From Candidatus Micrarchaeota archaeon (GTDB lineage Archaea > Micrarchaeota > Micrarchaeia > Anstonellales > Bilamarchaeaceae), in assembly GCA_018812625.1 (NCBI GenBank), contig JAHJDH010000025.1, positions 13,726 through 77,725 of the forward strand: a stretch of 64,000 nucleotides of DNA, read 5' to 3'. Positions 6,208 through 47,280 of the stretch are shown here, one piece after another (the stretch's first letter is position 1; every line of letters starts with the position of its first letter). Made by a program: the position numbers and the translations under genes. The notes beneath the pieces are model-generated. The model did not search any database and was not told the DNA's origin. It worked only from the letters and a program-made list of their open reading frames with translations.

Positions 6208-6833
6208 CCACGTGTAGCAGTTTTCTTGAGGTTTTCAATATTTGTTTTTACTTCACCAGAAAAAATGGCACTTGCAGCAGCAAGATAATTTGCTCCAGCA
6301 ACATATGCACCATGAATGGTTTGTAGGCAGACGCCCCCATCCACTTCAATATTCATATCTGGTTTTAATTCCCGGATTTTTCTTATTTTTTCTTCCATAT
6401 TTGCCAGGTATGTTTGTCCAGAGAAACCAGGGCGAACAGTCATTACTAAAACTTCTTCAATATTGGACAGATAGGGCATGAGCTTTTCAACGGGGGTCTC
6501 GGGATTTATTGCAAGACCAAGCTTCCCACCTGCTTGTTTTACAGTTTTTATGAGTTTGTCAAAATCATTGATTGTCTCAACATGCACAAGATGCATGTGT
6601 GGCCCTGGAGTTTTTTCAATCCATTTTTCAGGATGAAAAACCATCCAGTGAAATTCATAATTTGCATTTGGCAGATCATGCAATGATTCGAGGCCAATGG
6701 TTTTGTTGGGAACAAATTCACCATCCATGATATCAAGCTGGATTATATTGACATGATCCTGGATAAGGGCGATACGTGAGAGAAGCTCCTCCCTACTTTT
6801 GACTAAGATTGCTGGTATTATCTCAAGCTGCAT
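6195..6833 (-). CDS. rpe: ribulose-phosphate 3-epimerase
   Basis: 'IIQLDIMDGEFVPN', 'HLMV-like HVET' and 'VDGG' motifs on a TIM-barrel epimerase. Confidence 0.85.
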   Translation of the reverse strand: MQLEIIPAILVKSREELLSRIALIQDHVNIIQLDIMDGEFVPNKTIGLESLHDLPNANYEFHWMVFHPEKWIEKTPGPHMHLVHVETINDFDKLIKTVKQAGGKLGLAINPETPVEKLMPYLSNIEEVLVMTVRPGFSGQTYLANMEEKIRKIRELKPDMNIEVDGGVCLQTIHGAYVAGANYLAAASAIFSGEVKTNIENLKKTATRGCQE

Positions 6834-7096
6834 TGTCCTCTCCCGCGCGAGTAATTAGACCCGTAAATAAGATAGATTATGAGTTAATAAAAAGATACCG
6901 CATAAACTGTGGTTCGAGGTAGTGATAATGGTTCTGAGGGGAAAATGATGGAAACGTTTAAATACTTAATGGGTACTCAAATAGGATGCGAAAAAAATAT
7001 TAACAGAAATGTTGTTAGACATAAGTTTTTTGTCAGAACAAAAATTGTATTTGTTCTTAGTAGAATAATGAAAAAAAATTTATAGGAAGATGAAAA

Positions 7097-16563: not shown

Positions 16564-16602
16564 TACTATGCTTCTGCATATTTATTCTTAATGCTCATTG
16601 GG
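16564..16602. repeat. 39-bp perfect direct repeat, copy 2 (functional 3' end of the HD gene)
   Basis: Identical to 14931-14969. Confidence 0.8.
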
Positions 16603-17678
16603 GAGACATCCAAAAGTGTTGGAAATCCATATGTTTCTGAAAGTATTGCAACTTTCTCTTCAGTCTCAAGTACCTTTACCATGTCCCATTTTTTTGCAAG
16701 CTCTTCAAAACCAACACTTGTTTCTACTGCTCCAACATAATCCCGCATTCCCATGTAGCTTGATATTCGTAGCTGGCCTCCTGGGTGCACAAACGAATCT
16801 ATTGTAGCTCGTGCCTCTGAAGCACTTATGTTATGTGTTCCTGTGATGAAGCACTGAACTGTAAGTGGGTCGAGCTCCATTCCAGAAACTGCCATTGCAT
16901 ATGCTGCAGCAGTTCTAAATGACGTTATCCAGTTGGTTTCTCTATAATGCCTTGGAAGAACTGCTGAAATAAAATCTGCTGTCTTTGCAATCCTTGCATG
17001 AAGGGGCAAGTTCATTCCTTTAATCAACACCGGATAGCTTGGAACAAAACTATCCTTCCCATTAAACATCACATGGTGCAATCCGACCATATCCAGGAGT
17101 GTTCTAACCTGCTCATCGCCATCAAACAACCTTACGAATCTGGTTCCAGCAGAAATATGTTCGTCTCTGAGTATCCTTCTTTCTATATCATTCATTTTGC
17201 TTCCTTCAAATAATCGTACAAAAAACAAGTCTATTCCAAGTTCTTTTACTATCAATGCCATTGGAAGAAATGTTTTTCCCATATCATGGATCATCCCACC
17301 AACAAAACAAAGATCTGGATCCAAATCCTCTGCTTCTGGGAGGTTTTGTTTTTTTGCTTCACTTGCAATCAAGTATGCTATAAATGCTACTTCGACACTA
17401 TGTCTTCTAGTATATCTCCACAGTTCATTTTCGCCTTCTCTCTCAGATAGCCTGCTGGCAGAAGCCTTTATGAGCTCAGATATTCCTTTCCTTCCATCTC
17501 CACGTTCCTCCATCTCAGATATTCCTTTCCTTCCATCTCCACGTTCCTCCATAATTCTTCGAACAACGTGTGATCGTGTAAGGCCTTCTAATGCTGGTTC
17601 AGACTTGGCAAATGCCCTAAACAATAGTGTTTGTAATGTTCTTGCACGTGCATGATTTTTGTAATCTAGACTGGGCAT
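16566..17678 (-). CDS. HD-domain phosphohydrolase, HD-GYP-like with a degenerate GYP motif
   Basis: 'H..E' and 'HDMGK' metal-binding motifs. 'HHVMFNGKDSFVPSYP' resembles HD-GYP 'HHExxDGxGYP' with an insertion. I chose the start at MPSLDYK (17678). The gene carries an in-frame 13-aa tandem duplication. Confidence 0.6.
   Translation of the reverse strand: MPSLDYKNHARARTLQTLLFRAFAKSEPALEGLTRSHVVRRIMEERGDGRKGISEMEERGDGRKGISELIKASASRLSEREGENELWRYTRRHSVEVAFIAYLIASEAKKQNLPEAEDLDPDLCFVGGMIHDMGKTFLPMALIVKELGIDLFFVRLFEGSKMNDIERRILRDEHISAGTRFVRLFDGDEQVRTLLDMVGLHHVMFNGKDSFVPSYPVLIKGMNLPLHARIAKTADFISAVLPRHYRETNWITSFRTAAAYAMAVSGMELDPLTVQCFITGTHNISASEARATIDSFVHPGGQLRISSYMGMRDYVGAVETSVGFEELAKKWDMVKVLETEEKVAILSETYGFPTLLDVSPMSIKNKYAEA
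17475..17552. repeat. 2 x 39-bp perfect tandem repeat inside the HD gene (encodes MEERGDGRKGISE twice)
   Basis: 17475-17513 equals 17514-17552 exactly. Confidence 0.9.
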
Positions 17679-17734
17679 GGGGTTAATAGTGTAAAAGAAT
17701 AATAATTTAAACAATTCTGTGGTTTTTTCCACAT

Positions 17735-18268
17735 ATGCCGATATATACCAAGTTTGGTGACAAAGGAACAACTTCTCTTATTGGCTCAGGTACAGTCCCA
17801 AAAGATCATCCTCGTGTTGAAGCATATGGGAGTATTGATGAACTTAATTCTGTTCTTGGAATTGTAATTGCGTTTAGTGAAACAAAATCCATTACTGATT
17901 CTCTCAAAAAAATCCAAAAAGATTTATTCATAATTGGCACTGAGCTTGCTTCAAAAAAACCTCCAACAAAAACCATCAGCCCAGCACGTGTTGGTGAGCT
18001 GGAGCAGGAAATCGACGAACTTGAATCCAACCTACCTCCTCTAAATCACTTCATTCTTCCAGGTGGAAGTAAAACTGCATCTCTTCTTCATCATGCGAGA
18101 ACTGTTTGCCGTAGAGCCGAGAGAAACGTCGTCTCAATTTCACAAAAAGAAAAAATCAATTCAAGTTCTATCAGTTATCTTAACCGTGTTGGCGATCTTC
18201 TTTTCGTGTTGGCACGTACTGTAAATTACAAAAAGAAAGTCGATGAGGTTCTTTGGAAGGGCCATTGA
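17735..18268 (+). CDS. ATP:cob(I)alamin adenosyltransferase, PduO/MMAB type
   Basis: 'YTKFGDKGTTSL...RVEAYGSIDELNSVLG' is the canonical PduO-type N-terminal signature. Confidence 0.8.
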   Translation: MPIYTKFGDKGTTSLIGSGTVPKDHPRVEAYGSIDELNSVLGIVIAFSETKSITDSLKKIQKDLFIIGTELASKKPPTKTISPARVGELEQEIDELESNLPPLNHFILPGGSKTASLLHHARTVCRRAERNVVSISQKEKINSSSISYLNRVGDLLFVLARTVNYKKKVDEVLWKGH

Positions 18269-18446: not shown

Positions 18447-21400
18447 ATGGCTGGAAAACCAAGAGGTCCGAAACAACTGTCTCATGCTGAAAAAGACCTA
18501 ATTCCAACTTCTCTGGCAAAGGCTAAAAAATTCGGCTCGCGCGATACTCAAAGCGAATCCTATTGCATTCTTCCAGCTCATCTTTGTCAAGATATTCTAT
18601 CTACAGTATATGATGCTATTGTTGTAACCAATTCTAAAGGCAGAATTGTTTCATGGAATCCTGCTGCAACAAGGGTTTTTGGTTATGATCCTGACGAAGT
18701 TGTTGGGGAGCCAATATCCATCATAATGCCTCCTGACTCCAAAGAGGCATTTAGATTAAGATCACAAGAAAACGGATTTGCTCCTCCCCATTCTTTTGAT
18801 AAACCTGTGGAGCTCTCCGGTCTTGCCAAAAACGGAAGTATTGTTCCAATAGAACTTACCATTGTTCCCTGGAATCGGGGAGATGAAGTATATTTTGTCA
18901 GTACTATCCGGGATATTAGTGAAAGAAAAGGAGCAGAGCTCTTATTACTGGAGAGTGAGCAACTTCAATCTGCCTTATATGGTGTCATGCGTGAGGGCGT
19001 ATGCATTCATGAACTAATTTTTGATGATGATGGAGTTCCTATAGATTATCAGATACTTGATGCTAATCCGGCATATTCCAAACTAACCGAAATTCCTTCT
19101 AGTGTTGCAGTAGGTTCTCTTGCTTCTGAGCTCTATGGGCCTGGTCCCCCATTCCTTGATATTTATGCTGAAGTTGCAACTACTGGAGTTTCCCAGGATT
19201 TTGAAATCACATGGACGCCTCAAAACAAAACATTTCATGTTTCTGTTTTTTCACTTAGAGCAGATCAATTCGCAACGGTGTTTGCTGATATTACTGCAAG
19301 AAAACGTGCAGAAGAAGCTCTAACGAGTAGTGAAACAAGATACCGGACTCTTTTTGAAAGCACTCACGATGCCAGTATGACTCTGAGTCCTCCTACTTGG
19401 AAATTTACTAGCGGTAACCACGCAGCATTGAATTTATTTGGTGTTGAAGATGTCGAATCATTTACTTCAAATCCTCCCTGGGCATATTCTCCTAAATTTC
19501 AACCTGATGGTCAATCTTCCCGCGAGAAGGCAAGGGAAATGATACAAAAAGCCATGTCTGATGGTTCTGCATTCTTTGAGTGGACTCACAAAAAACCCAC
19601 TGGCCAAGAGTTTCCAGCCACAGTCTTACTCACACGCATGGAATTAGATGACAAGCTCATGCTTCAGGCTGTGGTAAGAGACATTACTGAACAGAAGCTG
19701 GCCGAAGAATCATTAGCCCGAAACGAAGAGAGGATGACAAAAATAGCTCAGGTCTTTTCAACTCTTGGAAGCAACACTGGAGAAAACATTCAGAAACTAA
19801 CTGCACTTTGCGGCGAACTCCTTGATGCTGATTGTGCGCTCTATAATTGTCTTGAGGGGGATGTGCTTTGTTCTTTGGGAACCTGGAATGTTCCTGATGA
19901 TTATGAAGTAGTCTCTCAGGCAGAAGGCCATATCTGCTCTGATCTTATTTCCTATCCTCCAGACGGTGGCCAGCATGTTGTTTCTAATCTTCTATCTTCG
20001 TCATATGCGGAAACTGATTCCAATGTAAGAAAGTATGGTCTGAAAACTTATCTTGGAAATTTGATCAGGTGTCAAGGCGAGCCCATCGGGACATTATGTG
20101 TTGTTTATACTTCTGATTATAAACCATCCAAAGCAGATCGAAAAATTCTCAGTATTATTGCTACTACCATCTCAGGCGAAGAGGAGCGCAGAATGGCCGA
20201 ATTGGCTCTTCGTGAGAGTGAAGAGCGATTCAGAGATCTTACTGAAGCTTTGCCTCAAACTGTTTATGAAACTGATCTGGAAGGACGCATCTCTTATGCT
20301 AACCCTCAGGCTTTCGAGACCTTTGGCTATCCCCCATCAATTATTGAAAGTGGCATAACTCTTGCCAATCTCATTTCTCAAAAAGACTGGCCTCGCCTTT
20401 CTGATTCCATATCTGCTCTTCGCTCTGGGGGGCACACTTCTGGAAAGGAATATCTGGCTGTTAGATCAGATGGCACAACATTTCCCATTGTAGTTTATAC
20501 TCGTACTAAAAAAAGAGATAATCGTATCATTGGTTTTAGGGGAATTGCAGTAGATATTACTGAGCGCAGAAAATTAGAAGTTGAGATGCAAAGAAATGCC
20601 AAAATGAAAGCAGTGGGTCGTTTAGCCGGCGGAATCGCGCATGATTTTAACAACCTGCTCATGGTCATGGTTGGAAATGCTTCTTTGGCCGGAGTGCTAA
20701 CCGAACCGAGTGATGATGAAGAGCGGGCAAAAGTTCTAAGCGAAATCGAGAGGGTCGGGAAAGAGGCAAAGGCACTAACTGATCAGCTTCTTACCTTTGC
20801 CAAAGGGGGAAGCCCTGTCAAAGAAACAGCATCTATGGTTGAACTTCTCGAAGAAACCTCGCAACTTATGCTCAGGGGATCCAATGTTATTGCAAAACAT
20901 AATCACCCAAGCGATCTTTGGCCTGTTGATATTGACCGGAGCCAAATTGGCCAGGTTGTTCAAAATCTTGTTGTGAACGCAGATCAATCCATGCCAGAAG
21001 GCGGCACAATACTTCTTTCTTCTCGCAATATATCCAATCCCCCAAACTTGCCTCTAGGTGATTATATAGAGCTATCATTTACTGATACTGGAATCGGAAT
21101 CCGTTCAAATGAACTGGAAGAAATCTTCGAACCGTTTTACACAACTAAAGATAAGGGACATGGTCTTGGTCTTGCAACTACCTACAGAATAGTCAAAAAT
21201 CATGGCGGAGATATTCATGTAAAATCAAAATTGGGCAAAGGATCAACATTCACGGTCTACCTTCCTGCGAAACCCGGAGCAGTACCTATTCCAAGCTACA
21301 CCCCACCTTCTAATTTAACTACTGGCAATGCCAGGATATTGCTGATGGATGACGAGCCTTCTGTTCGAAATTCCGCATCGCGAATGCTCCAAAGACTTGG

Positions 21401-21710
21401 ATATTCGTGTACGTCTGCTATTGATGGTGCTGATGCTATAGAGCAGTATCGCAGTGCTCTTTCTGACAATGCTTTTGATCTGGTTATTCTGGATCTAACT
21501 GTGCCTGGTGGAATGGGTGGCGTCGAGGCTCTAAAAAGACTTCAGGAAATAGATCCTAATGTTCTGGCTATTGCTTCTAGCGGGTATACAAATGATGATA
21601 CGATGGCTCATCCAAAGACCAGTGGGTTTGCCGGTGTGCTTCCCAAACCCTATAGTCTTCAGAGAATCTCAGATATAGTTGCACAAACCCTCAGAAAACA
21701 AACTTCTTAA
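18447..21710 (+). CDS. hybrid sensor histidine kinase: multiple PAS/GAF domains + HisKA + HATPase + C-terminal receiver
   Basis: H-box 'AHDFNNLLMVMVGN', N/G boxes 'NLVVNADQSM' and 'DTGIGI...GHGLGL', REC 'ILLMDDEPSVRN...DLVILDLTVPGGMGG'. Several PAS-like repeats with 'RDITERK' junctions. Confidence 0.85.
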   Translation: MAGKPRGPKQLSHAEKDLIPTSLAKAKKFGSRDTQSESYCILPAHLCQDILSTVYDAIVVTNSKGRIVSWNPAATRVFGYDPDEVVGEPISIIMPPDSKEAFRLRSQENGFAPPHSFDKPVELSGLAKNGSIVPIELTIVPWNRGDEVYFVSTIRDISERKGAELLLLESEQLQSALYGVMREGVCIHELIFDDDGVPIDYQILDANPAYSKLTEIPSSVAVGSLASELYGPGPPFLDIYAEVATTGVSQDFEITWTPQNKTFHVSVFSLRADQFATVFADITARKRAEEALTSSETRYRTLFESTHDASMTLSPPTWKFTSGNHAALNLFGVEDVESFTSNPPWAYSPKFQPDGQSSREKAREMIQKAMSDGSAFFEWTHKKPTGQEFPATVLLTRMELDDKLMLQAVVRDITEQKLAEESLARNEERMTKIAQVFSTLGSNTGENIQKLTALCGELLDADCALYNCLEGDVLCSLGTWNVPDDYEVVSQAEGHICSDLISYPPDGGQHVVSNLLSSSYAETDSNVRKYGLKTYLGNLIRCQGEPIGTLCVVYTSDYKPSKADRKILSIIATTISGEEERRMAELALRESEERFRDLTEALPQTVYETDLEGRISYANPQAFETFGYPPSIIESGITLANLISQKDWPRLSDSISALRSGGHTSGKEYLAVRSDGTTFPIVVYTRTKKRDNRIIGFRGIAVDITERRKLEVEMQRNAKMKAVGRLAGGIAHDFNNLLMVMVGNASLAGVLTEPSDDEERAKVLSEIERVGKEAKALTDQLLTFAKGGSPVKETASMVELLEETSQLMLRGSNVIAKHNHPSDLWPVDIDRSQIGQVVQNLVVNADQSMPEGGTILLSSRNISNPPNLPLGDYIELSFTDTGIGIRSNELEEIFEPFYTTKDKGHGLGLATTYRIVKNHGGDIHVKSKLGKGSTFTVYLPAKPGAVPIPSYTPPSNLTTGNARILLMDDEPSVRNSASRMLQRLGYSCTSAIDGADAIEQYRSALSDNAFDLVILDLTVPGGMGGVEALKRLQEIDPNVLAIASSGYTNDDTMAHPKTSGFAGVLPKPYSLQRISDIVAQTLRKQTS

Positions 21711-21735: not shown

Positions 21736-21906
21736 ATGGAAAAATTATATCTACCAATCTCTTTCATTTCTTTTGGAATCGTGATTCTACTTATTGCAAT
21801 TACTGGAATGATGGGCCCATTCAGTGTCTATCTCCTTGTATTTGGCACTATCTTTGTTATCGCCGGATTTCATTTTTGGAAAAAGAACCTAAGCCCTTCC
21901 TCCTAA
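21736..21906 (+). CDS. possible 56-aa two-TM membrane peptide (below the ORF-track cutoff)
   Basis: ATG at 21736. 'MEKLYLPISFISFGIVILLIAITGMMGPFSVYLLVFGTIFVIAGFHFWKK' is hydrophobic. It converges on and overlaps the next gene's end by 18 nt. Confidence 0.2.
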   Translation: MEKLYLPISFISFGIVILLIAITGMMGPFSVYLLVFGTIFVIAGFHFWKKNLSPSS

Positions 21907-23388
21907 TCTCAGTGCAGCTAATAATGCAAAAATTGAGAATATTAAAATTGCTGACATGCAGCTTCCGCTTCCAGATGGTACGTTTCCGTATGTTTCTGGA
22001 ACAGTGACCTCTCCTCCTTCTGCGAAACTTTGCATCTCAGCAGCAGTTGCAGTGCCCACACTGTCTGCTCCTGGAGATACTCCAGGATAAATATACAAAT
22101 GTTGTCCTCCGTTCACTTGTGCTGCATTTTCCGGAGCTTCAATAAGTCCCGAGAGAACTGTTCCTTTCATTACAATTAATGTTTCTGGCATGCTCTCATC
22201 CTCCGGAACAATAACCTTGAACTCTGTTCCTTTTACTACATGATATCCAAGCCTCCCCAAAACTCTAAAGTCATGTTTTACTTCAACTTCTATTGCTCCC
22301 TTTTTGAGCTTGATTTCATTTTTGAAATACTGAATCCTAAATGGCCCTTTCAAAACAACTGCCGTATCATCACTATACATTATTGTAACTGTTTCTCCGC
22401 TATGAACTTCAAATTCATCTCCTTCCATTGTTTCATATGCATTGTATCCCTCATCCCAATCACTTCCAATAATCTGGCCATTTCTCCAAAGAGTTGCTCC
22501 TCCTTTTTTAATTAGTAAATTTGTTAGGTTTGGTGATGGGTAAACTGTTACTGTTTTTGTTCCAAGTCTTCTTCCTTCAGAATCGTATGCAGTTGCAGTA
22601 ATGATTGTAGATTTGCCTTCAGTTATTTTTACTCCTTCTAAACTAAATTTATTTGAATTTGAATCAAAACCCGCTTGCATTGGCGTTGCAAGTGTGGTAC
22701 TTATTGTTACTCTACTAACCTGGTGTGAAGAGCTGGAAGCAACACTTCCCTCAACATCAACAAGTACGTATCCTTGTTTTCCAGTATCAAACCTTGCTCC
22801 ATTTGTTGGAGAATCTATTGTAACACTTAATGGATCTGCATCCTCGCAGTTTGTTCCTGCAGAATTACATTTCCATACGCATTGGCCTTTTGTGTAGCCG
22901 CATACATATCCATCTGAACTGCTATTGTCCTCTATACATCTTCCATCGTAGTAAAGCGATGGTAGATTATTTTCGTATTGGCATGCAGAAGGACAAGAAA
23001 CATCAGCACAAACTCCTTCTGGTATCTCTTCTTCATAATCATTTTTCGGCCCATCTGAAAATGGCGAAGGGCTTCCTTCCCAATGGCTTCCGCATTCATT
23101 CATGCACGTGCCCATACATCTGGCAATACTTTCCTTGTTATATCCGCTTCCTGATTCTCCTGCATACTGCATACAGGCAACATCATCTGATCCTTTTACG
23201 GATCCTAAAAACAGAAGCATGCACCCTGGCATTTTGTCGCATTCATTGACCTTGCCCGGCAGGAGTTCCATTATTGCGCCTCCATGCTTGTAGCAGCATG
23301 TGTTCATGCAAGAATCAAGGCATTGTGAAAATGCAGGAGTTACTAGTGCCAGTATTATCAGTATTATGATGAAAATGCGCATGGGCAT
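21889..23388 (-). CDS. secreted Met/Cys-rich surface protein with C-terminal TM anchor
   Basis: Signal peptide 'MPMRIFIIILIILALVTPAFS'. The N-terminal 120 aa is dense in Cys and Met ('CLDSCMNTCCYKHGG', 'CMGTCMNECG'). Central beta-rich region. C-terminal 'SAILIFSIFALLAALRLGGRA' anchor. Confidence 0.6.
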   Translation of the reverse strand: MPMRIFIIILIILALVTPAFSQCLDSCMNTCCYKHGGAIMELLPGKVNECDKMPGCMLLFLGSVKGSDDVACMQYAGESGSGYNKESIARCMGTCMNECGSHWEGSPSPFSDGPKNDYEEEIPEGVCADVSCPSACQYENNLPSLYYDGRCIEDNSSSDGYVCGYTKGQCVWKCNSAGTNCEDADPLSVTIDSPTNGARFDTGKQGYVLVDVEGSVASSSSHQVSRVTISTTLATPMQAGFDSNSNKFSLEGVKITEGKSTIITATAYDSEGRRLGTKTVTVYPSPNLTNLLIKKGGATLWRNGQIIGSDWDEGYNAYETMEGDEFEVHSGETVTIMYSDDTAVVLKGPFRIQYFKNEIKLKKGAIEVEVKHDFRVLGRLGYHVVKGTEFKVIVPEDESMPETLIVMKGTVLSGLIEAPENAAQVNGGQHLYIYPGVSPGADSVGTATAAEMQSFAEGGEVTVPETYGNVPSGSGSCMSAILIFSIFALLAALRLGGRA

Positions 23389-23523
23389 AATATAATCATG
23401 AATCTTATAGCCTTTTCGCAAGATCTTTTACTTTCTTGCATGGTATTGCTGCGAATCTAATCCATGCCATACAATTAGAATTGGAGAAAAAAAGTTATGA
23501 AAATTTTGGTAGAGCAGTATCAA

Positions 23524-23766
23524 TTATTTTTTTCCTTTTTTTAATGCTAGAACTAAGTGCAGGATAACCAGCAAGATGAATGGAATCGTTAGTGCCTCAT
23601 GCATCACAAAAGCAGTACTTTTTGATATGAGGCCAAATGTGATGCTATCAATAATCTGGAATTTCGTGATTCCATATCCCGAGATTATCATGAGTAATGT
23701 GACTGCAGCAAGAAGCCATTGGACTATAGTTTTGATTTTCGTTCTATCAATCGATGAAGCTTTCAT
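23524..23766 (-). CDS. small 2-TM membrane protein with a His-x13-His helix (candidate minimal b-type heme-binding unit)
   Basis: TM2 'AFVMHEALTIPFILLVILHLVLAL' has His residues 14 positions apart. That is the spacing of bis-heme ligands in cytochrome b / ferric-reductase helices. It overlaps the MsrP-like gene by 20 nt. Confidence 0.45.
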   Translation of the reverse strand: MKASSIDRTKIKTIVQWLLAAVTLLMIISGYGITKFQIIDSITFGLISKSTAFVMHEALTIPFILLVILHLVLALKKGKK

Positions 23767-24421
23767 TCAAATTTCCCTCGTCTGAATATCCTCTTCTCTC
23801 CCAATATCCCTGGTAGTTCTCATTATCTGAAAACTCGATCTCAGTAATCCATTTGATCCACTTGTATCCCCATTTGCTCTCAGCTACAAGTTGGAATGGA
23901 TACCCTCTCTCAGGCGGGATAGTCACATTGTTCATACTGTGGGCCATAATGATATCATTATCATAGAAGTATTCAATTGGAAACGAGGTTGTATATCCGT
24001 CTTGGGCATGGAATATGATTGTGTTCGCATTTTCCTTTGGGCTTGCCTTGGATATGATGTCTCGGACAAGAATTCCCTCCCAGAGAATATTTACGCTCCA
24101 GCCTTCTACACAGTCGAGTCTTACTACCTTTTCGTAGCTTTGAAATCCATCAACAATCTCAGTGTAGGTATATTCTGTTGGATTCTCTACAAGGCCACTC
24201 ACTTTCAACTTGTAACTACTTTCATTGATGTACTGTGGGCCCTTTATCGAGTTCTCTCTAAAATTATTAATCGAAGAAAGATCTTCTCCTTCATATTCTT
24301 TTACTTGCACTCCTTCAAGTCTCTCTGGTGAAATGCTCTCTTGAACGCATCCATATACAAGAATAAGAATCCCTACAAAAAGAAGGATTTTTGTGAATCC
24401 AAGACTACTGTTTCTATCCAT
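23747..24421 (-). CDS. MsrP/YedY-like molybdopterin-oxidoreductase-domain lipoprotein
   Basis: 'DCVEGWSVNILWEG' matches the MsrP 'RCVEAWSMVVPW' Mo-ligand Cys motif. 'GYPFQLVAESKWGYKWIKWI' matches '[20 protein letters not shown]'. N-terminal lipobox-like 'LVYGC'. No twin-arginine motif. Confidence 0.65.
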   Translation of the reverse strand: MDRNSSLGFTKILLFVGILILVYGCVQESISPERLEGVQVKEYEGEDLSSINNFRENSIKGPQYINESSYKLKVSGLVENPTEYTYTEIVDGFQSYEKVVRLDCVEGWSVNILWEGILVRDIISKASPKENANTIIFHAQDGYTTSFPIEYFYDNDIIMAHSMNNVTIPPERGYPFQLVAESKWGYKWIKWITEIEFSDNENYQGYWERRGYSDEGNLNESFID

Positions 24422-24486
24422 GTTTTCTATATCTTCCTTTGTTTTATTAATTAATTCTATTCCTGTAAAAAAATTAAAAAGAAAAG

Positions 24487-25122
24487 TTATTGATCTGGTC
24501 CTGGAACACAGTAGCTGTCAACACAAACATTTCCTTCACTACAACCCATATCTGTAGTACACTCAACGCAGATATGATATTCTGCAGATATATCGCCATC
24601 ACTGTGACCCGTCATTATGCAGTCTCGCTGTCCTGCTTCACAAGTCGGGCAGTCTATTTCACAGTGCATCATGTTGATAGTGCACTCTGGAAATTCCTCA
24701 TACAATTCTGTTTCTGAATAGCAGTTGCCATTGAAACAATGATTTCCTTCTGGACAGGAACTTGAAAATACACATTCTTGAGTAACACAGAATCCATATT
24801 CGCACTCTTCATCCTTTGACCATGCGCAATCATAATCATCTTCGCATTCTGCTCCCCATTTTACTTCCCCAGAAACAGGCGCAGTTTCTCCAGTTCCAGA
24901 ATCTTCTTCATCTTCTTCGCCTGGAGTTTCTTCTTCAACTGGAACATCCTCAACAGGAGTACTATCCTCGTCTACTTCCTGAGTGTCATCCTCTGCGTTT
25001 TGAGTATCCTCATCAGTTTCAACAACTACATCTCCATCTACAGTTGTTTCTGAGCTGGTTACACATCCTAGCAGCATGCTTGAGCAAAATACAAAAATCA
25101 ATAAACCATATATCGTTCTCAT
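24487..25122 (-). CDS. secreted lipoprotein with an acidic linker and Cys-rich C-terminal domain
   Basis: 'LLGC' lipobox-like, a D/E-rich tract of about 70 aa, then 24 Cys in 110 aa. Confidence 0.5.
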   Translation of the reverse strand: MRTIYGLLIFVFCSSMLLGCVTSSETTVDGDVVVETDEDTQNAEDDTQEVDEDSTPVEDVPVEEETPGEEDEEDSGTGETAPVSGEVKWGAECEDDYDCAWSKDEECEYGFCVTQECVFSSSCPEGNHCFNGNCYSETELYEEFPECTINMMHCEIDCPTCEAGQRDCIMTGHSDGDISAEYHICVECTTDMGCSEGNVCVDSYCVPGPDQ

Positions 25123-25308
25123 TGTTTCACCTCGCTATCTAAAAATTTACGAATGAAAACAAGTAAAAACATGCCTAATACAAGAAACCTGATTATTCTT
25201 TGGTTGGGCTTCCTTTCTTCAGAATTATCGTGCTTGGATCTGTCCAGCTGCAATATGCTTCTTCTCTTCCCTAAAGCACAGAAACCAGTTAAGTTTGGCA
25301 CAGGACCA

Positions 25309-25905
25309 TCACTGATCACAGTTTTTCTTGCATTCGTCTTCTTTATCATAGCAGACCAAGAAGCAGCTATCTTTCTTCTTTTTTGCCGCATCATCGCACC
25401 AATAATGATCATCAGAGCCCGGGGTATGCGCTGTGAGGCAATCTGCCTCCTCGCTTTTCATGATATTGTAGCATGATTCCTTGCATGATGATTCGGTTGC
25501 TGCACAGCCTTCCCTGCATTTTTTTACTGTACCGTTGGCTCTCCAGTCAGAGAGTATCTCGTCGATAGCCCTACCAGTCTGGTCTCCGGTAACTTTAAGG
25601 ATGCAACTGTATTTTGCAGCTTCATCTGAACTAAGGTCACAGTATTTTAAGCTCCTTTTATCCGATGCATATTCTCCTACGCAATTGTTCCTGTCAGCAG
25701 CCTGGAGGCATACATTCGGGTTTTCCATCTTGCTGGCAACTTCGGCAAAACATCTGTTGATATCATTCTTTTCCTCAAGGCCATTACACAATGCAGGATT
25801 GTTGCTGTCTATTGCCTGGTCAATTTTTTCATTGACTGGATTGGTGCAGCCATATAGTAGCAAAAACACAAGAAATATTGGTATAATGAGAATCCTGGAG
25901 TTCAT
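25309..25905 (-). CDS. secreted Cys-rich lipoprotein
   Basis: 'LLYGC' lipobox-like signal, followed by 18 Cys and many Lys/Asp. Confidence 0.5.
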   Translation of the reverse strand: MNSRILIIPIFLVFLLLYGCTNPVNEKIDQAIDSNNPALCNGLEEKNDINRCFAEVASKMENPNVCLQAADRNNCVGEYASDKRSLKYCDLSSDEAAKYSCILKVTGDQTGRAIDEILSDWRANGTVKKCREGCAATESSCKESCYNIMKSEEADCLTAHTPGSDDHYWCDDAAKKKKDSCFLVCYDKEDECKKNCDQ

Positions 25906-26021: not shown

Positions 26022-26717
26022 TCACCATATAAAAGGAATCAGACGGTATCTTGTTTTTCTGCAGTATTCCACATATCCAGGCAGGTCGCGCCTGAGCACT
26101 TCCTCCTCATTCAAAATGCGCAATACTATAACTGGGATAAGCAGAATAAATGCGGGCACAGCTACATAAGAGCCAAGTGCAATTGGGGTTGCCATATACA
26201 TGACCAGTGTCCCGACATACATCGGATGCCTGACAACAGAATATGGTCCGGTTGATATGACTCTCTGGCCTTTGTCGACCTGGACTGTGCGCCCAGCGTA
26301 ACCGTTTTCCCTGAACACCAAAAAGATTAGCAAGTACCCTAGGAAGACAAAAACATCTGCGACGATGGAAATTTCATGTGGCACAAGAGACCATCCAAAA
26401 CGGTAATCAAATCCTGGGATGAGGAAGGCAATTATGAACATCAACGCTGATACTTTGATGATGAGCCCCTGCCTGGCCTCACTTTCCTTTGTTCTCATTC
26501 TCCGCTCCAAGAATGCCGGGTCCTTTTTCAGGAAATAGAGAACTACAAAAGAGGCAGGCACAACCAATATCGCGATATATACCCAGGCCTGCCAGTAGTC
26601 GAGGGTGCCAGCCGGTCCAAATAGAAAAATCCCCAGGATAACCGGTGTTGCTAATAAAGCAAGAAAGATTTTCTTCTTCAATGCAGTCGCATCCATGAAG
26701 TCAATTTCCTTTAACAA
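26022..26717 (-). CDS. isoprenylcysteine carboxyl methyltransferase (ICMT)/phospholipid methyltransferase-family membrane protein
   Basis: Multi-TM protein with C-terminal 'VISTGPYSVVRHPMYVGTLVMY', the ICMT/PEMT SAM-binding signature. Confidence 0.7.
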   Translation of the reverse strand: MLKEIDFMDATALKKKIFLALLATPVILGIFLFGPAGTLDYWQAWVYIAILVVPASFVVLYFLKKDPAFLERRMRTKESEARQGLIIKVSALMFIIAFLIPGFDYRFGWSLVPHEISIVADVFVFLGYLLIFLVFRENGYAGRTVQVDKGQRVISTGPYSVVRHPMYVGTLVMYMATPIALGSYVAVPAFILLIPVIVLRILNEEEVLRRDLPGYVEYCRKTRYRLIPFIW

Positions 26718-45585: not shown

Positions 45586-47280
45586 ATGTCTCTAAGAACT
45601 CTTTTGTCTTTTTCTATTGTCCTAATCTTTCTTCTTGGCTGTGTATCCGGGCCTGCTGATGATTCTCTTCCAAGAGATCTTGAAATCCGAATAAATGACG
45701 GCAAGGCAATTACCACATCTTCAAATGTGGAACTTTTACTTTTTGCCAGGAATGCAGCTGCATGCAGACTCTCAAATGATGGAGCTACCTGGAATGCCTG
45801 GGAAAATTACTCTCGCGAAAAATCATGGGTTCTTGAAGAAGCCGATGGCATAAAGCAGGTATCCTATCAGTGCCGCAGTTTTGGCGGAGGATTATCTCCG
45901 ATTGTTTCATCTTCGATAGAACTTGATTCAACCCCACCAACCATAATACTATCAAGTCCAGTTGCTGGACAAACATATTATGACTCATTGGAGCTTGTTT
46001 TCAAGGTAATCGATCCGGCATCAGATAAGGTTCTCTGCAGTGCGGTTATAGGAAACGATATTCTTGATCTTGGGGTTCTTCACACTGATGTGCAGCAGAG
46101 TATTCTCATAGGCCTTTCTGAAGGAGAAAAGACTATTACGCTCAACTGCAGCGACAAAATTCACACTTCTGCTGCTAATGTCAGCATTATCCTGAAAAAG
46201 AAGCCTTTTGTTTCATTTGCTATAAATGGCGGCTCTGATTACACAGATAACAAAAATGTTACTCTTGATCTCCTATCTACAACAGCTTCTCAATGCAGGT
46301 TCTCACGTGATAACCTACAATGGGGAGATTGGGAAGAGTATCAACCTGTTATGAAATGGGTTCTGCAAGGAAGCGATGGCAAAAAGAAAGTATATGTTCA
46401 ATGCCGGGATTCAAACAATGTGGAATCTGATACCATTGATGATACAATATCTCTTGATACAAAGCCTCCTCCATACATTTCTCTAAAAATAAATAATGGA
46501 GTTGAATGGACCTCTTCTTCTGATGTCACTTTGGGTCTCTATGCATACTCTGCTTCAGAATGCCGTCTTTCTCATGATGATCAGAATTGGGGATCCTGGG
46601 AACCATACTCCACAAAGAAAAACTGGAAACTCAGCAGCGGCGAAGGGGAAAAGACTGTCTATTACGAATGCAAGAATAAAACCGGCGGCGATCTTGGTAT
46701 TGCATCTGCTCAAATAAGCTATTCTGCAATCCCCCAGATGCCTCCCTCATCGCTTAGCATCAAAATTAATGATGGTGATGAATATGCATCATCAGAAAAT
46801 CTTCAGCTCTCTCTTGGTGCAACCGGCGCATTCGAGTGCCGTCTTCGCGAAGGCAACCTGGACTGGAGTGCTTGGGAAAACCATATTTCCACAAAAACAT
46901 TTACTATAAGTGGAAATGATGGGGCAAAAACAATCTACTATCAGTGCAGGAATAACCATGGCACTACAACTGTCTTTGATCGTATCTATCTTGATCGCAA
47001 GCCTCCATCTGAACCAAAAAGCCTCAAAGCAGAAGCAAGCCCATACTCTGTTGTCCTTAGCTGGTCTGCAGCATCTGATTCTGGAAGTGGTGTGGAATCA
47101 TATTCTGTTTATCGGAAAGTTGACAGCACATGGAGATGGGTTGGTTCCGTATCTGGACTCAGTTACAAGGATGAGAAAATTGTTTCAGGAGAAACTTATG
47201 ATTACAAAGTGCTTGCGCTTGATTATAATAGAAATTCCGGCTCTGCATCACAGGTGAGTATTTCGGTTCCCGAGGAGTAG
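45586..47280 (+). CDS. secreted lipoprotein-like surface protein: four to five tandem ~80-aa modules + C-terminal fibronectin type III domain
   Basis: 'LLGC' signal. Modules share 'INxG..(T/A)SS..V.L.L.A..A..CR.S.D...W..WE.Y...K.W.L....G.K.VYYQC'. The C-terminus 'SLKAEASPYSVVLSWSAASDSGSGVESYSVYRK...YDYKVLALDYNRNSG' is FN3-like. Confidence 0.6.
   Translation: MSLRTLLSFSIVLIFLLGCVSGPADDSLPRDLEIRINDGKAITTSSNVELLLFARNAAACRLSNDGATWNAWENYSREKSWVLEEADGIKQVSYQCRSFGGGLSPIVSSSIELDSTPPTIILSSPVAGQTYYDSLELVFKVIDPASDKVLCSAVIGNDILDLGVLHTDVQQSILIGLSEGEKTITLNCSDKIHTSAANVSIILKKKPFVSFAINGGSDYTDNKNVTLDLLSTTASQCRFSRDNLQWGDWEEYQPVMKWVLQGSDGKKKVYVQCRDSNNVESDTIDDTISLDTKPPPYISLKINNGVEWTSSSDVTLGLYAYSASECRLSHDDQNWGSWEPYSTKKNWKLSSGEGEKTVYYECKNKTGGDLGIASAQISYSAIPQMPPSSLSIKINDGDEYASSENLQLSLGATGAFECRLREGNLDWSAWENHISTKTFTISGNDGAKTIYYQCRNNHGTTTVFDRIYLDRKPPSEPKSLKAEASPYSVVLSWSAASDSGSGVESYSVYRKVDSTWRWVGSVSGLSYKDEKIVSGETYDYKVLALDYNRNSGSASQVSISVPEE

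Follow-up and report, generated by a model that had tools for sequence, protein, structure and literature searches.

A conserved gene pair in a Micrarchaeota archaeon encodes an MsrP-like surface enzyme and an 80-residue protein resembling half a cytochrome b

Five genes lie close together on the minus strand of a 64-kb stretch of DNA (the window, meaning the whole stretch analysed) from a Micrarchaeota (DPANN) archaeon, and a preliminary description had read them as one redox-maintenance or metal-handling module built around an MsrP-like enzyme. The locus raises the question of which of these genes belong together and what their products do. All five open reading frames were found again, with exported or membrane-bound products, and are listed here together with the signals around them:

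25309..25905, minus strand: neighbour, 198-aa lipoprotein-like protein with 17 Cys, outside the conserved unit
24487..25122, minus strand: neighbour, 211-aa acidic lipoprotein-like protein with 20 Cys, outside the conserved unit
24422..24486, minus strand: putative archaeal terminator and promoter (T-run and AT-rich box), read from the sequence
23747..24421, minus strand: enzyme gene, 224 aa, Pfam PF00174 (Oxidored_molyb)
23524..23766, minus strand: small membrane protein gene, 80 aa, Pfam PF01292 (Ni_hydr_CYTB)
23480..23523, minus strand: putative archaeal terminator, T-run cttttttttct, likewise read from the sequence
21889..23421, minus strand: neighbour, ~500-aa surface protein, outside the conserved unit

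The 20-nt overlap reported for the enzyme gene and the small gene is real (23747-23766), and the two are therefore probably co-translated. In the intergenic region ahead of them, a T-run comes immediately past the stop codon of the 211-aa gene and is followed by an AT-rich box, aattaattaataaaa, approximately 25-40 nt ahead of the enzyme ATG. The T-run 3′ of the small gene would serve as a terminator ending a bicistronic unit, and the presence of T-runs behind both the 211-aa gene and the small gene suggests that the pair forms such a unit of its own.

The 224-aa ORF matched Pfam Oxidored_molyb in a profile search (E=6.6e-35), and its best Foldseek matches were SorA, YedY/MsrP, nitrate reductase, SoxC and sulfite oxidase, with E values from 1e-12 to 1e-7. 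Its segment RLDCVEGWSVNILWEG aligns with RMRCVEAWSMVVPWIG of YedY, by which C104 falls on Cys102. Taken together, these results bear out the earlier assignment of a sulfite-oxidase (SUOX) fold with an aligned Mo-ligand Cys, and Cys104 is the predicted Mo ligand. The first of the two motifs described before was found as C104-VEGWS-VNIL-W114-E-G116, ending in W-x-G and not in W-G as had been written, while the second, G173-Y-P-F-Q-L-V ... W184-G-Y-K-W-I-K-W191, was present as described; both were invariant or nearly so in 18 homologs. The enzyme has more than 8000 homologs, the best 120 of which showed 60-100% identity. MsrP was its best NCBIfam match with 74 bits, short of the equivalog cut-off of 207 bits, and the SorA equivalog model was far below its cut-off (62 vs 600 bits); by sequence comparison SorA and YedY lie at about the same distance from the family.

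The 80-aa protein matched PF01292 with 32.6 bits (gathering cut-off, 30.1) over profile positions 97-165 of 179, corresponding to the C-terminal half (TM3-TM4), and was below the cut-off for DUF4405 (20 vs 26.7 bits). The Pfam scores of both proteins are more than chance. As had been suggested from its H-x13-H spacing, this is a cytochrome-b-type two-helix protein, and its H-x13-H helix is the counterpart of TM4 in the prokaryotic cytochrome b561 family (PF01292; FdnI, HyaC, PhsC, CybB). TM4 in that family gives one ligand to each of two hemes, as in the FdnI structure. His56 and His70 were invariant in 20 and in 36 homologs, as were G30, G32, I33, G45 and K49. Unlike cytochrome b561, it consists of TM3-TM4 only and lacks the His of TM1 and TM2, so that two chains would be needed to ligate the hemes; dimerisation and binding of two b hemes are predicted. 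AlphaFold2 gave a helical hairpin (H8-34, H36-42, H49-79) with only moderate confidence for the monomer (pLDDT 77), and a fold search with this model returned nothing significant. The protein has at least 1421 homologous clusters at 90%, and a profile search for the family gave a tight set of 222 clusters at 50% identity, nearly all of 60-110 aa. A half cytochrome b561 with two TM helices and two His has been noted earlier in archaea (PMC5898192). FezC is likewise a small cytochrome, whose heme sites were modelled by homodimerisation and which binds heme b when purified (PMC11334425). The genomic contexts of FezC and of the arCOG04002/DUF4405 half-cytochromes, namely aldehyde:ferredoxin oxidoreductase/ferritin in Thermococci, flavinylation (ApbE) clusters or ferrosomes, differ from that of the window pair, and none includes a SUOX enzyme.

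The preliminary description had staked its proposal on the small gene accompanying MsrP-like genes in related genomes. Among 80 related loci, the small gene was directly downstream of the enzyme gene on the same strand in 36, and in 4 others, from Methanobacteria and unclassified methanogen-lineage (Methanobacteriota/Euryarchaeota) MAGs, the partner was fused to the enzyme N-terminus; in half of the loci, including 20 of the 29 from Dehalococcoidia, no partner was present within 4 kb. Paired loci span DPANN archaea, Thermoplasmatota, Methanobacteria and Chloroflexota/Dehalococcoidia, and include a Candidate Phyla Radiation (CPR) bacterium and an Acidobacteriota genome. In the reverse direction, all four further homologs of the small protein that were checked lay directly behind a PF00174 gene of 227-229 aa. 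Adjacency and fusion of the two genes are conserved across many phyla, and the proposal survived on this point. The genes are widespread in anaerobic sediment and groundwater organisms, and no description of the pairing of such an enzyme with a half-cytochrome was found in the literature searched.

The neighbourhood of the pair also speaks to its substrate. An msrB gene was located within 4 kb of the enzyme gene in 9 of the 80 loci and msrA in 7, with tight enzyme/cytochrome b/msrB/msrA operons in Woesearchaeota, and one Komeilibacteria (CPR) locus carries an in-frame msrB-TM-enzyme fusion. Other neighbours at the four reverse-check loci were genes for KatG, rubrerythrin, rubredoxin, DJ-1/PfpI and thioredoxin-domain proteins. 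The msr neighbours and the fusion lend independent support to the methionine-sulfoxide idea put forward from the window.

The enzyme N-terminus, MDRNSSLGFTKILLFVGILILVYGC, has a single Arg, lacks RR and ends in a lipobox-like G-C, and N-termini of lipobox or anchor type without RR were seen in 114 of 115 homologs, confirming the Sec/lipoprotein-type signal claimed in place of a Tat signal. One variant has a Pro/Thr-rich linker and a C-terminal anchor, and the charge distribution of the fused forms supports an outside topology, so these features indicate that the enzyme domain lies on the outer side of the membrane. Because a Tat signal is absent, the predicted export route does not sit easily with an enzyme that receives its Moco in the cytoplasm. 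The 64-kb window showed no recognisable gene for Moco or heme synthesis or for Tat, which is a weak test, and many hosts (CPR, DPANN, Methanobacteria) are generally considered to be without Moco and/or heme synthesis and quinones.

With a probability of roughly 0.55, we read the pair as a sulfoxide-reductase system of MsrPQ-like type at the cell surface, fed through a minimal electron wire that is probably a homodimer holding two hemes. The lipobox-type signal or anchor would hold the enzyme on the outside of the cytoplasmic membrane, and Cys104 would be the ligand to Mo (or W) in its pterin cofactor. Two hairpin copies may pair via their second helices, with one heme near the outer face bound by His56/His56′ and another near the cytoplasmic face bound by His70/His70′, the two positions being 14 residues, or roughly 21 Å, apart along one helix. 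Such a transmembrane wire would be reduced by a donor in the cytoplasm or membrane and would in turn reduce the enzyme, presumably bound at the conserved outer loop (G30, G32, I33, G45, K49). The oxidised substrate, which the enzyme would reduce outside the cell, would most likely be the methionine sulfoxide of surface proteins or else a related S-/N-oxide.

The resemblance to E. coli MsrP-MsrQ (YedYZ) extends to an extracytoplasmic SUOX-fold enzyme with its Mo-ligand Cys in a C-V-E-(G/A)-W-S hairpin, to a membrane b-type cytochrome with bis-His ligation (predicted here) encoded directly downstream, and to the linkage to oxidative-stress repair; we also take the N-N-F-x-E motif to be common to the window enzyme and YedY. 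Unlike MsrP (334 aa), the window enzyme has 224 aa and a Sec/lipobox instead of a Tat signal, and it lacks the insertion of YedY between residues 136 and 180 and the ~80-residue C-terminal extension. MsrQ, a six-helix protein of ferric-reductase type, is absent beside the enzyme, and the two-helix cytochrome b561 half takes its position as partner. For archaeal MsrP, the electron donor has been stated to be unknown and MsrQ to be absent (PMC8773360).

The same components could run in the opposite direction, as an extracytoplasmic dehydrogenase of sulfite (or another oxyanion) that delivers electrons through the small cytochrome b into the membrane or the cell, serving detoxification or energy supply. 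The sulfite dehydrogenases SorAB and SorT gave the best PDB sequence and fold matches of the window enzyme, with SorA marginally above YedY. Invariant Tyr212 aligns with SorA Tyr236, and invariant Arg55, where YedY presumably has Tyr, would be in register with what we take to be SorA Arg55 if the alignment is extended ungapped; on the strength of Arg55 and Tyr212, the pocket appears partly sulfite-oxidase-like. SorA differs in its long loop behind the Cys, its dimerisation domain and its soluble c-type cytochrome partner, whereas the short C-VEGWS loop of the window enzyme resembles YedY, as presumably does the N-N-F-x-E motif, which we take not to match SorA. The window enzyme has no dimerisation domain, the part of sulfite oxidases that carries their third active-site Arg, and the surrounding genes are msrA/msrB and those for peroxide defence rather than for sulfur oxidation. 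Most hosts are strict anaerobes or symbionts in which no high-potential acceptor chain is known. On balance we regard this function as unlikely.

No likelier is a function outside Moco chemistry, in which the exported SUOX-fold domain binds a free pterin or another metal via Cys104 and the small protein acts as an anchor or signal relay. It would suit the occurrence of the module in lineages that are generally considered to be without Moco and heme synthesis, and the N-terminal motif region of the enzyme model has low pLDDT. PruR, a minimal stand-alone SUOX fold exported by a Sec-type (possibly lipoprotein) signal, binds non-Moco pterins, and PruR structures appear among the fold matches; yet PruR-type proteins have Trp at the Mo-ligand Cys and a truncated hairpin, and the PruR partner is a diguanylate cyclase/phosphodiesterase sensor and no cytochrome (PMC11194511). 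In the window enzyme family, by contrast, the Cys is invariant, as is the complete CVEGWS hairpin, and the fold search placed Moco enzymes well ahead of PruR. The partner, for its part, scores above the cut-off of a heme-binding family and its two His are invariant, and the msr context points to redox chemistry.

Rather improbable, in our estimate, is a respiratory role as terminal reductase for small S-/N-oxides (DMSO, TMAO, free MetSO) in redox balancing or energy. The pair offers a membrane-integral electron route and is common in anaerobic habitats, and work cited in PMC6211008 reports that E. coli YedY reduced DMSO and TMAO in vitro. Against this, a two-helix wire has no quinol site and no obvious coupling mechanism, and the repeated linkage to msrA/msrB and peroxide defence fits repair better. 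Many hosts are also not known to have quinones.

The flanking genes remain. Against a window background of 1.3% Cys, the ~500-aa surface protein (510 aa from a start at 23421, 499 aa from 23388) carries 19 Cys, 18 of them within residues 1-200, and 10 Met within residues 1-130, which confirms its Met/Cys-rich N-terminal region; it also has a signal peptide and a C-terminal hydrophobic anchor. The other two are Cys-rich as claimed, their 20 and 17 Cys making the range of 18-24 slightly high. Pfam gave no family for the 211-aa protein and only sub-threshold FecR and Big_7 matches for the ~500-aa protein, and neither Pfam nor NCBIfam gave a significant family for the 198-aa protein. That the five genes constitute a single system for maintenance or metal handling, in which the Cys/Met-rich proteins would be dedicated clients or Cu/Mo carriers, is very unlikely despite their common strand, close spacing, exported or membrane-bound products and high Cys/Met content. 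Lack of conservation largely refutes it: the three flanking proteins were without homologs throughout the 80 loci, other Micrarchaeota included. In a close relative only the pair is kept and, adjoining the small gene, a homolog of the ICMT-like gene of the window. The T-runs set the pair apart from both neighbours, and no evidence for Cu/Mo handling was found.

The conserved unit is two genes, not five. If its reading as an MsrPQ-like sulfoxide-reductase system is true, the pair would be part of oxidative-stress defence, like MsrP-MsrQ of E. coli but with a much smaller partner.

All five genes that the preliminary description had placed on one strand in 21889-25905 were found as minus-strand ORFs, in a window with a GC content of about 39%:

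25905-25309, minus strand, Cys-rich flanking gene (198 aa)
25122-24487, minus strand, Cys-rich flanking gene (211 aa)
24421-23747, minus strand, enzyme gene (224 aa)
23766-23524, minus strand, small cytochrome b gene (80 aa)
23421 (or 23388/23382)-21889, minus strand, Cys/Met-rich flanking gene (about 500 aa)

The 20-nt overlap claimed between the enzyme gene and the 80-aa gene is real and lies at 23747-23766. Proteins identical to the 224-aa and 80-aa products have been deposited from MAGs labelled "Candidatus Micrarchaeota archaeon", which assigns the window to a DPANN archaeon, and the locus of the pair is present on two independent assemblies. The flanking proteins contain 19 (about 500 aa), 20 (211 aa), and 17 (198 aa) Cys residues; the background Cys content of the window is 1.3%. 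A public gene call (25119-25349, minus strand, 76 aa) sits between the genes of the two Cys-rich lipoproteins, overlapping the 198-aa gene at its end and meeting the 211-aa gene at its start; its product is basic and partly hydrophobic, and the call may be spurious. On the plus strand, a 1087-aa protein is encoded at 18447-21710, with its end some 180 nt away from the 3′ end of the convergent surface-protein gene; PAS-like repeats in multiple copies, a histidine-kinase core and a receiver domain at the C-terminus were recognized in it by eye. Across the window (1-64000), neither a tRNA gene nor an Rfam family at gathering score was detected; ten unannotated window ORFs gave a single Pfam match, an HD domain (16566-17771), and a 564-aa lipoprotein-like ORF (45586-47280) was assigned to no family.

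The 224-aa product of the enzyme gene is a protein of the sulfite oxidase (SUOX) fold. It matched Pfam Oxidored_molyb (PF00174) with 120.6 bits (cut-off 24, E = 6.6e-35) over profile positions 7-169 of 169, and was thus above gathering score along the whole domain. With the AlphaFold2 model (pLDDT 72.5) as query, 46 chains in the PDB matched at E<=1e-3, and every one except a single chain was SUOX-fold; SorA, YedY/MsrP, nitrate reductase, SoxC and sulfite oxidases ranked first, PruR was lower, and SorT was also among them. Both motifs listed in the preliminary description were recovered, CVEGWS-x4-W-x-G starting from Cys104 and GYPFQLVAESKWGYKWIKW at residues 173-191. Since the HMMER alignment set RLDCVEGWSVNILWEG of the enzyme opposite RMRCVEAWSMVVPWIG of YedY, Cys104 is the counterpart of the Mo ligand Cys102 of YedY, and C104 with the full CVEGWS hairpin was invariant in 18 homologs. 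Cys104, the predicted Mo ligand, would bind a Mo/W-molybdopterin. PruR is a Sec-exported SUOX-fold protein that can bind a non-Moco pterin and lacks the Cys (PMC11194511); proteins of the PruR type have Trp in its place and a truncated hairpin, whereas in the window enzyme the Cys is present and the CVEGWS hairpin is complete. Another candidate class, the "sulfite oxidases" found among archaea in Thaumarchaeota and Lutacidiplasmatales, was set aside as a different clade, described as SO/NR-sister (PMC9287336).

The best curated family was the NCBIfam MsrP equivalog NF003767, for which the enzyme scored 74.2 bits, below the cut-off of 207, and its PDB sequence scores against SorA and YedY were nearly equal. 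The enzyme thus belongs to a distinct, shortened SUOX clade and is no MsrP ortholog; the internal insertion and the C-terminal extension of YedY are both missing from the window enzyme. Tyr212 aligned with SorA Tyr236, and the invariant Arg55 lies within an N-N-F-R-E motif, which we take to resemble N-N-F-Y-E-F of YedY. From this alignment and motif, the pocket may be a hybrid of the reductase and sulfite oxidase types. Arg55 could be equivalent to SorA Arg55 or to YedY Tyr47; the PDB alignment meant to place it stopped short of N-N-F-R-E.

The 80-aa protein scored 32.6 bits against Pfam Ni_hydr_CYTB (PF01292, prokaryotic cytochrome b561; gathering score 30.1), with the match limited to profile positions 97-165 of 179, corresponding to TM3-TM4. 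While a PF01292 cytochrome b561 has four TM helices and four heme-ligand His per chain, the 80-aa protein has two helices and two invariant His. A precomputed PF01292 match was present in most of its homologs; DUF4405 (PF14358) gave 20 bits for the window protein, under the cut-off of 26.7, although a few homologs do carry PF14358. The His-x13-His pair pointed out in the second helix was confirmed as His56 and His70, which were invariant together with Gly30, Gly32, Ile33, Gly45 and Lys49 in alignments of 20 and 36 homologs. A helix-1 His occurs in many homologs but is not conserved, the window protein having Gln16. The AlphaFold2 model was a hairpin with a short loop helix, for which a PDB fold search yielded generic helical hairpins, none of them at E<=0.001. 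Heme b is the predicted ligand.

Used alone as query in a word-index search, the 80-aa sequence found only 3 close relatives, and it was an alignment built from neighbouring ORFs that opened up the family. At 90% identity, the resulting profile matched at least 1421 clusters, nearly all of them about 80 aa long and inconsistently annotated as cytochrome b561, formate dehydrogenase cytochrome b subunit, DUF4405 or "dolichol kinase". In a search of 1.84 billion representatives, only 222 clusters were found, nearly all 60-110 aa in length; the proteins form a discrete family of their own and are no gene-call fragments of full-length cytochromes.

The enzyme family is very large and highly conserved: more than 8000 proteins matched the enzyme, the best 120 of which were all at least 60% identical, and 80 genome loci with enzyme homologs (56-70% identity) were retrieved for comparison. 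Their archaeal hosts were Micrarchaeota, Woesearchaeota, Aenigmatarchaeota, Nanoarchaeota, Thermoplasmatota, Methanobacteria, Methanocellales, Methanophagales and Archaeoglobaceae, and their bacterial hosts Dehalococcoidia, other Chloroflexota, WOR-3, Atribacteria, Acidobacteriota and, from the Candidate Phyla Radiation (CPR), Komeilibacteria and Peregrinibacteria. Such identity over two domains suggests that the enzyme family spread horizontally among anaerobic sediment and groundwater organisms.

When the small-protein HMM was run over every ORF of the 80 loci, the small gene followed the enzyme gene immediately and in the same orientation in 36, and was fused to the enzyme N-terminus in another 4 (two Methanobacteria and two unclassified methanogen-lineage MAGs), so that the small ORF is indeed kept beside MsrP-like genes in relatives; in half of the 80 loci no partner was found within 4 kb of the enzyme gene. 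The proportion by lineage is listed below.

Loci with the small cytochrome b partner, by host lineage
Thermoplasmatota: 8 of 9
Woesearchaeota: 4 of 4
Micrarchaeota: 4 of 5
Methanobacteria: 5 of 5
Other Chloroflexota: 5 of 7
Dehalococcoidia: 9 of 29

The reverse test gave the same association, as 4 of 4 metagenomic small-protein homologs lay directly behind a 227-229-aa Oxidored_molyb gene. Fused forms consist of the two-helix H-x13-H domain, a K/R-rich linker, a third helix and the enzyme domain; in the fused genes (L018:3704-4642, L056:3659-4609, and those of L019 and L023) the third helix has no lipobox Cys. To our knowledge, Methanobacteria are regarded as methanogens without cytochromes, which makes the fused forms noteworthy.

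None of the three Cys/Met-rich flanking proteins had a homolog in any of the 80 related loci or a family match. T-runs, noted by eye from the sequence, follow the stops of the upstream 211-aa gene and of the small gene, and an AT-rich box, likewise noted by eye, precedes the ATG of the enzyme gene. The conserved unit is thus the bicistronic pair, and the five-gene "module" of the preliminary description is a local coincidence. Its interpretation is supported in part: the enzyme and mini-cytochrome are a real and conserved pair, probably MsrPQ-like, and the Cys/Met-rich genes are no part of it.

Other neighbours recurred in some lineages. An ICMT/PEMT-family membrane methyltransferase is encoded at window 26022-26717 (minus strand), about 1.6 kb upstream of the enzyme gene and past both Cys-rich genes; one adjoins the small gene in a second Micrarchaeota locus (L003:4834-5499), and two lie near the fused gene of a Methanobacteriota locus (L056:4757-5458 and 6241-6927). 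Thirteen Dehalococcoidia/Chloroflexota loci without the small cytochrome (L005, L012, L020, L024, L025, L036, L041, L052, L054, L055 (4643-5173), L060, L078 and L082) have directly downstream a conserved multi-helix membrane protein of about 176 aa with no His pair, which may be shared synteny of that clade only.

Genes for methionine sulfoxide reductases were found within 4 kb of the enzyme gene, msrB in 9 and msrA in 7 of the 80 loci, from at least five separate lineages, and operons of enzyme, cytochrome b, msrB and msrA with abutting or overlapping genes occur in Woesearchaeota and Thermoplasmatales. The Mo-domain gene, small cytochrome b and msrB, usually with msrA, stand together at L015:1509-3223, L033:4001-5243, L044:4001-5820 and L075:1-1696 (in L075 with msrA on the opposite strand), and at L017 and L029 the Mo-domain gene is followed by msrB and msrA with no cytochrome. 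A Candidatus Komeilibacteria (CPR) locus, L026:3128-4899, contains msrA, an in-frame fusion of msrB, a TM helix and the MsrP-like domain with no intervening stop, and the small cytochrome b gene; the fusion is a single example and could be a sequencing error. Metagenomic copies of the pair (L085:21-2222, L086:1-1819, L083:1-2246, L088:3493-5574) adjoin oxidative-stress genes, with a KatG-type peroxidase directly upstream and rubrerythrin, rubredoxin, Rieske and Usp proteins; further neighbours are DJ-1/PfpI, FMN reductase, cupredoxin and a thioredoxin-DsbH protein. In two contexts a ZIP metal transporter gene lies directly downstream. The msrB/msrA neighbours, the msrB fusion and the stress-gene contexts support a predicted role in the repair or detoxification of oxidised sulfur compounds, with methionine sulfoxide in surface proteins as the simplest candidate, by analogy with MsrP. 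The pair is probably an MsrPQ-like system with predicted methionine sulfoxide reductase activity.

With one Arg and a G-C lipobox-like end, the N-terminus of the 224-aa protein agrees with the lipoprotein-type signal ascribed to it. No RR was present in the window protein, and RR followed by hydrophobic residues, the Tat feature of MsrP, was found in only 1 of 115 homolog N-termini. About half of these N-termini end in a lipobox-like G-C and the rest resemble uncleaved anchors, with no correlation between N-terminus type and presence of the partner. Positive charges in the fused proteins lie ahead of helix 1 and between helices 2 and 3; MsrB, a cytoplasmic enzyme, is joined in frame in the Komeilibacteria locus to an N-terminal helix followed by the enzyme domain; and a 294-aa enzyme homolog (P0105) carries, at its C-terminus, a Pro/Thr-rich linker and a hydrophobic anchor with KRK as its last residues, as archaeal surface proteins typically do. 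Together these features place the enzyme domain, as predicted from sequence, outside the membrane. A Moco enzyme destined for the outside normally receives its cofactor in the cytoplasm and is then carried across by Tat in folded form; members of this family have Sec-type signals or are integral membrane fusions, and nonetheless keep the Mo-ligand Cys. As far as we know, many of the hosts are regarded as lacking Moco synthesis (CPR, DPANN), heme synthesis or cytochromes (CPR, DPANN, Methanobacteria), and quinones. Genes for Moco, Tat or heme were not recognized within the 64-kb window, a finding that says little about the whole genome.

In the mechanism we propose, two hairpins would pair through their second helices, His56/His56′ binding an outer heme and His70/His70′ an inner heme. 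Along one face of the helix, His56 and His70 are separated by 14 residues, or about 21 Å, which is the usual spacing for di-heme b cytochromes. Electrons taken up on the cytoplasmic side would be relayed to the Mo centre of the enzyme, which would sit on the conserved outer loop. The heme binding, the dimerisation, the electron donor and the substrate in this scheme are putative. Archaeal two-helix, two-His "half cytochrome b561" proteins are on record (PMC5898192), and for FezC, which binds heme b when purified, the heme sites were modelled by homodimerisation (PMC11334425).

The pair would work like E. coli MsrP-MsrQ, but differs in its equivalog score, in the absence of a Tat signal and in its partner. 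MsrQ is a six-helix ferric-reductase-type heme/flavin protein, whereas the gene downstream of the enzyme here encodes an 80-aa PF01292-type hairpin, and neither an adjacent MsrQ nor any larger cytochrome is present at the locus. We know of no repair system for oxidised methionines outside the cytoplasm other than MsrP-MsrQ. Both genes of the pair are already in databases under generic names. No description of the MsrP-like/half-cytochrome pairing was found in the searched literature; Kappler (2008), as cited in a review, states that "YedY-like" group 1B enzymes use a different cytochrome (PMC7759655), and this group could cover the pair.

The fused forms, cytochrome b-TM-enzyme and MsrB-TM-enzyme, would support Sec threading or membrane insertion of the enzyme, and export other than by Tat would mean that the cofactor is received outside the cell, scavenged, or is other than Moco. 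The pair could represent a widespread class of surface pterin enzymes that dispense with folded Tat export, being Sec-threaded or membrane-inserted, with a cofactor obtained in one of these ways and powered by a homodimer of 80-residue di-heme hairpins, the smallest known transmembrane electron wire, in hosts without quinones and often without Moco or heme synthesis (CPR, DPANN, Methanobacteria). We consider this full reading rather unlikely, at roughly one chance in four; if true, it would name the electron donor of archaeal MsrP-like enzymes and imply a new route of extracytoplasmic cofactor insertion.

For annotation, the Cys/Met-rich neighbours are lineage-specific and should not be counted in the system. 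The 80-residue half-cytochrome, which is conserved and in some loci fused, makes a concrete candidate electron source for archaeal MsrP-like enzymes, and if it forms a dimer around two hemes, it would be a minimal natural transmembrane electron wire, relevant to bioenergetics and protein design. A Sec-type signal together with an invariant Mo-ligand Cys in lineages of reduced biosynthesis (CPR, DPANN) raises the question of how and where the cofactor is inserted. With its biochemical steps all predicted, the pair would supply a specific answer to a question explicitly left open, and it poses a puzzle of cofactor logistics.
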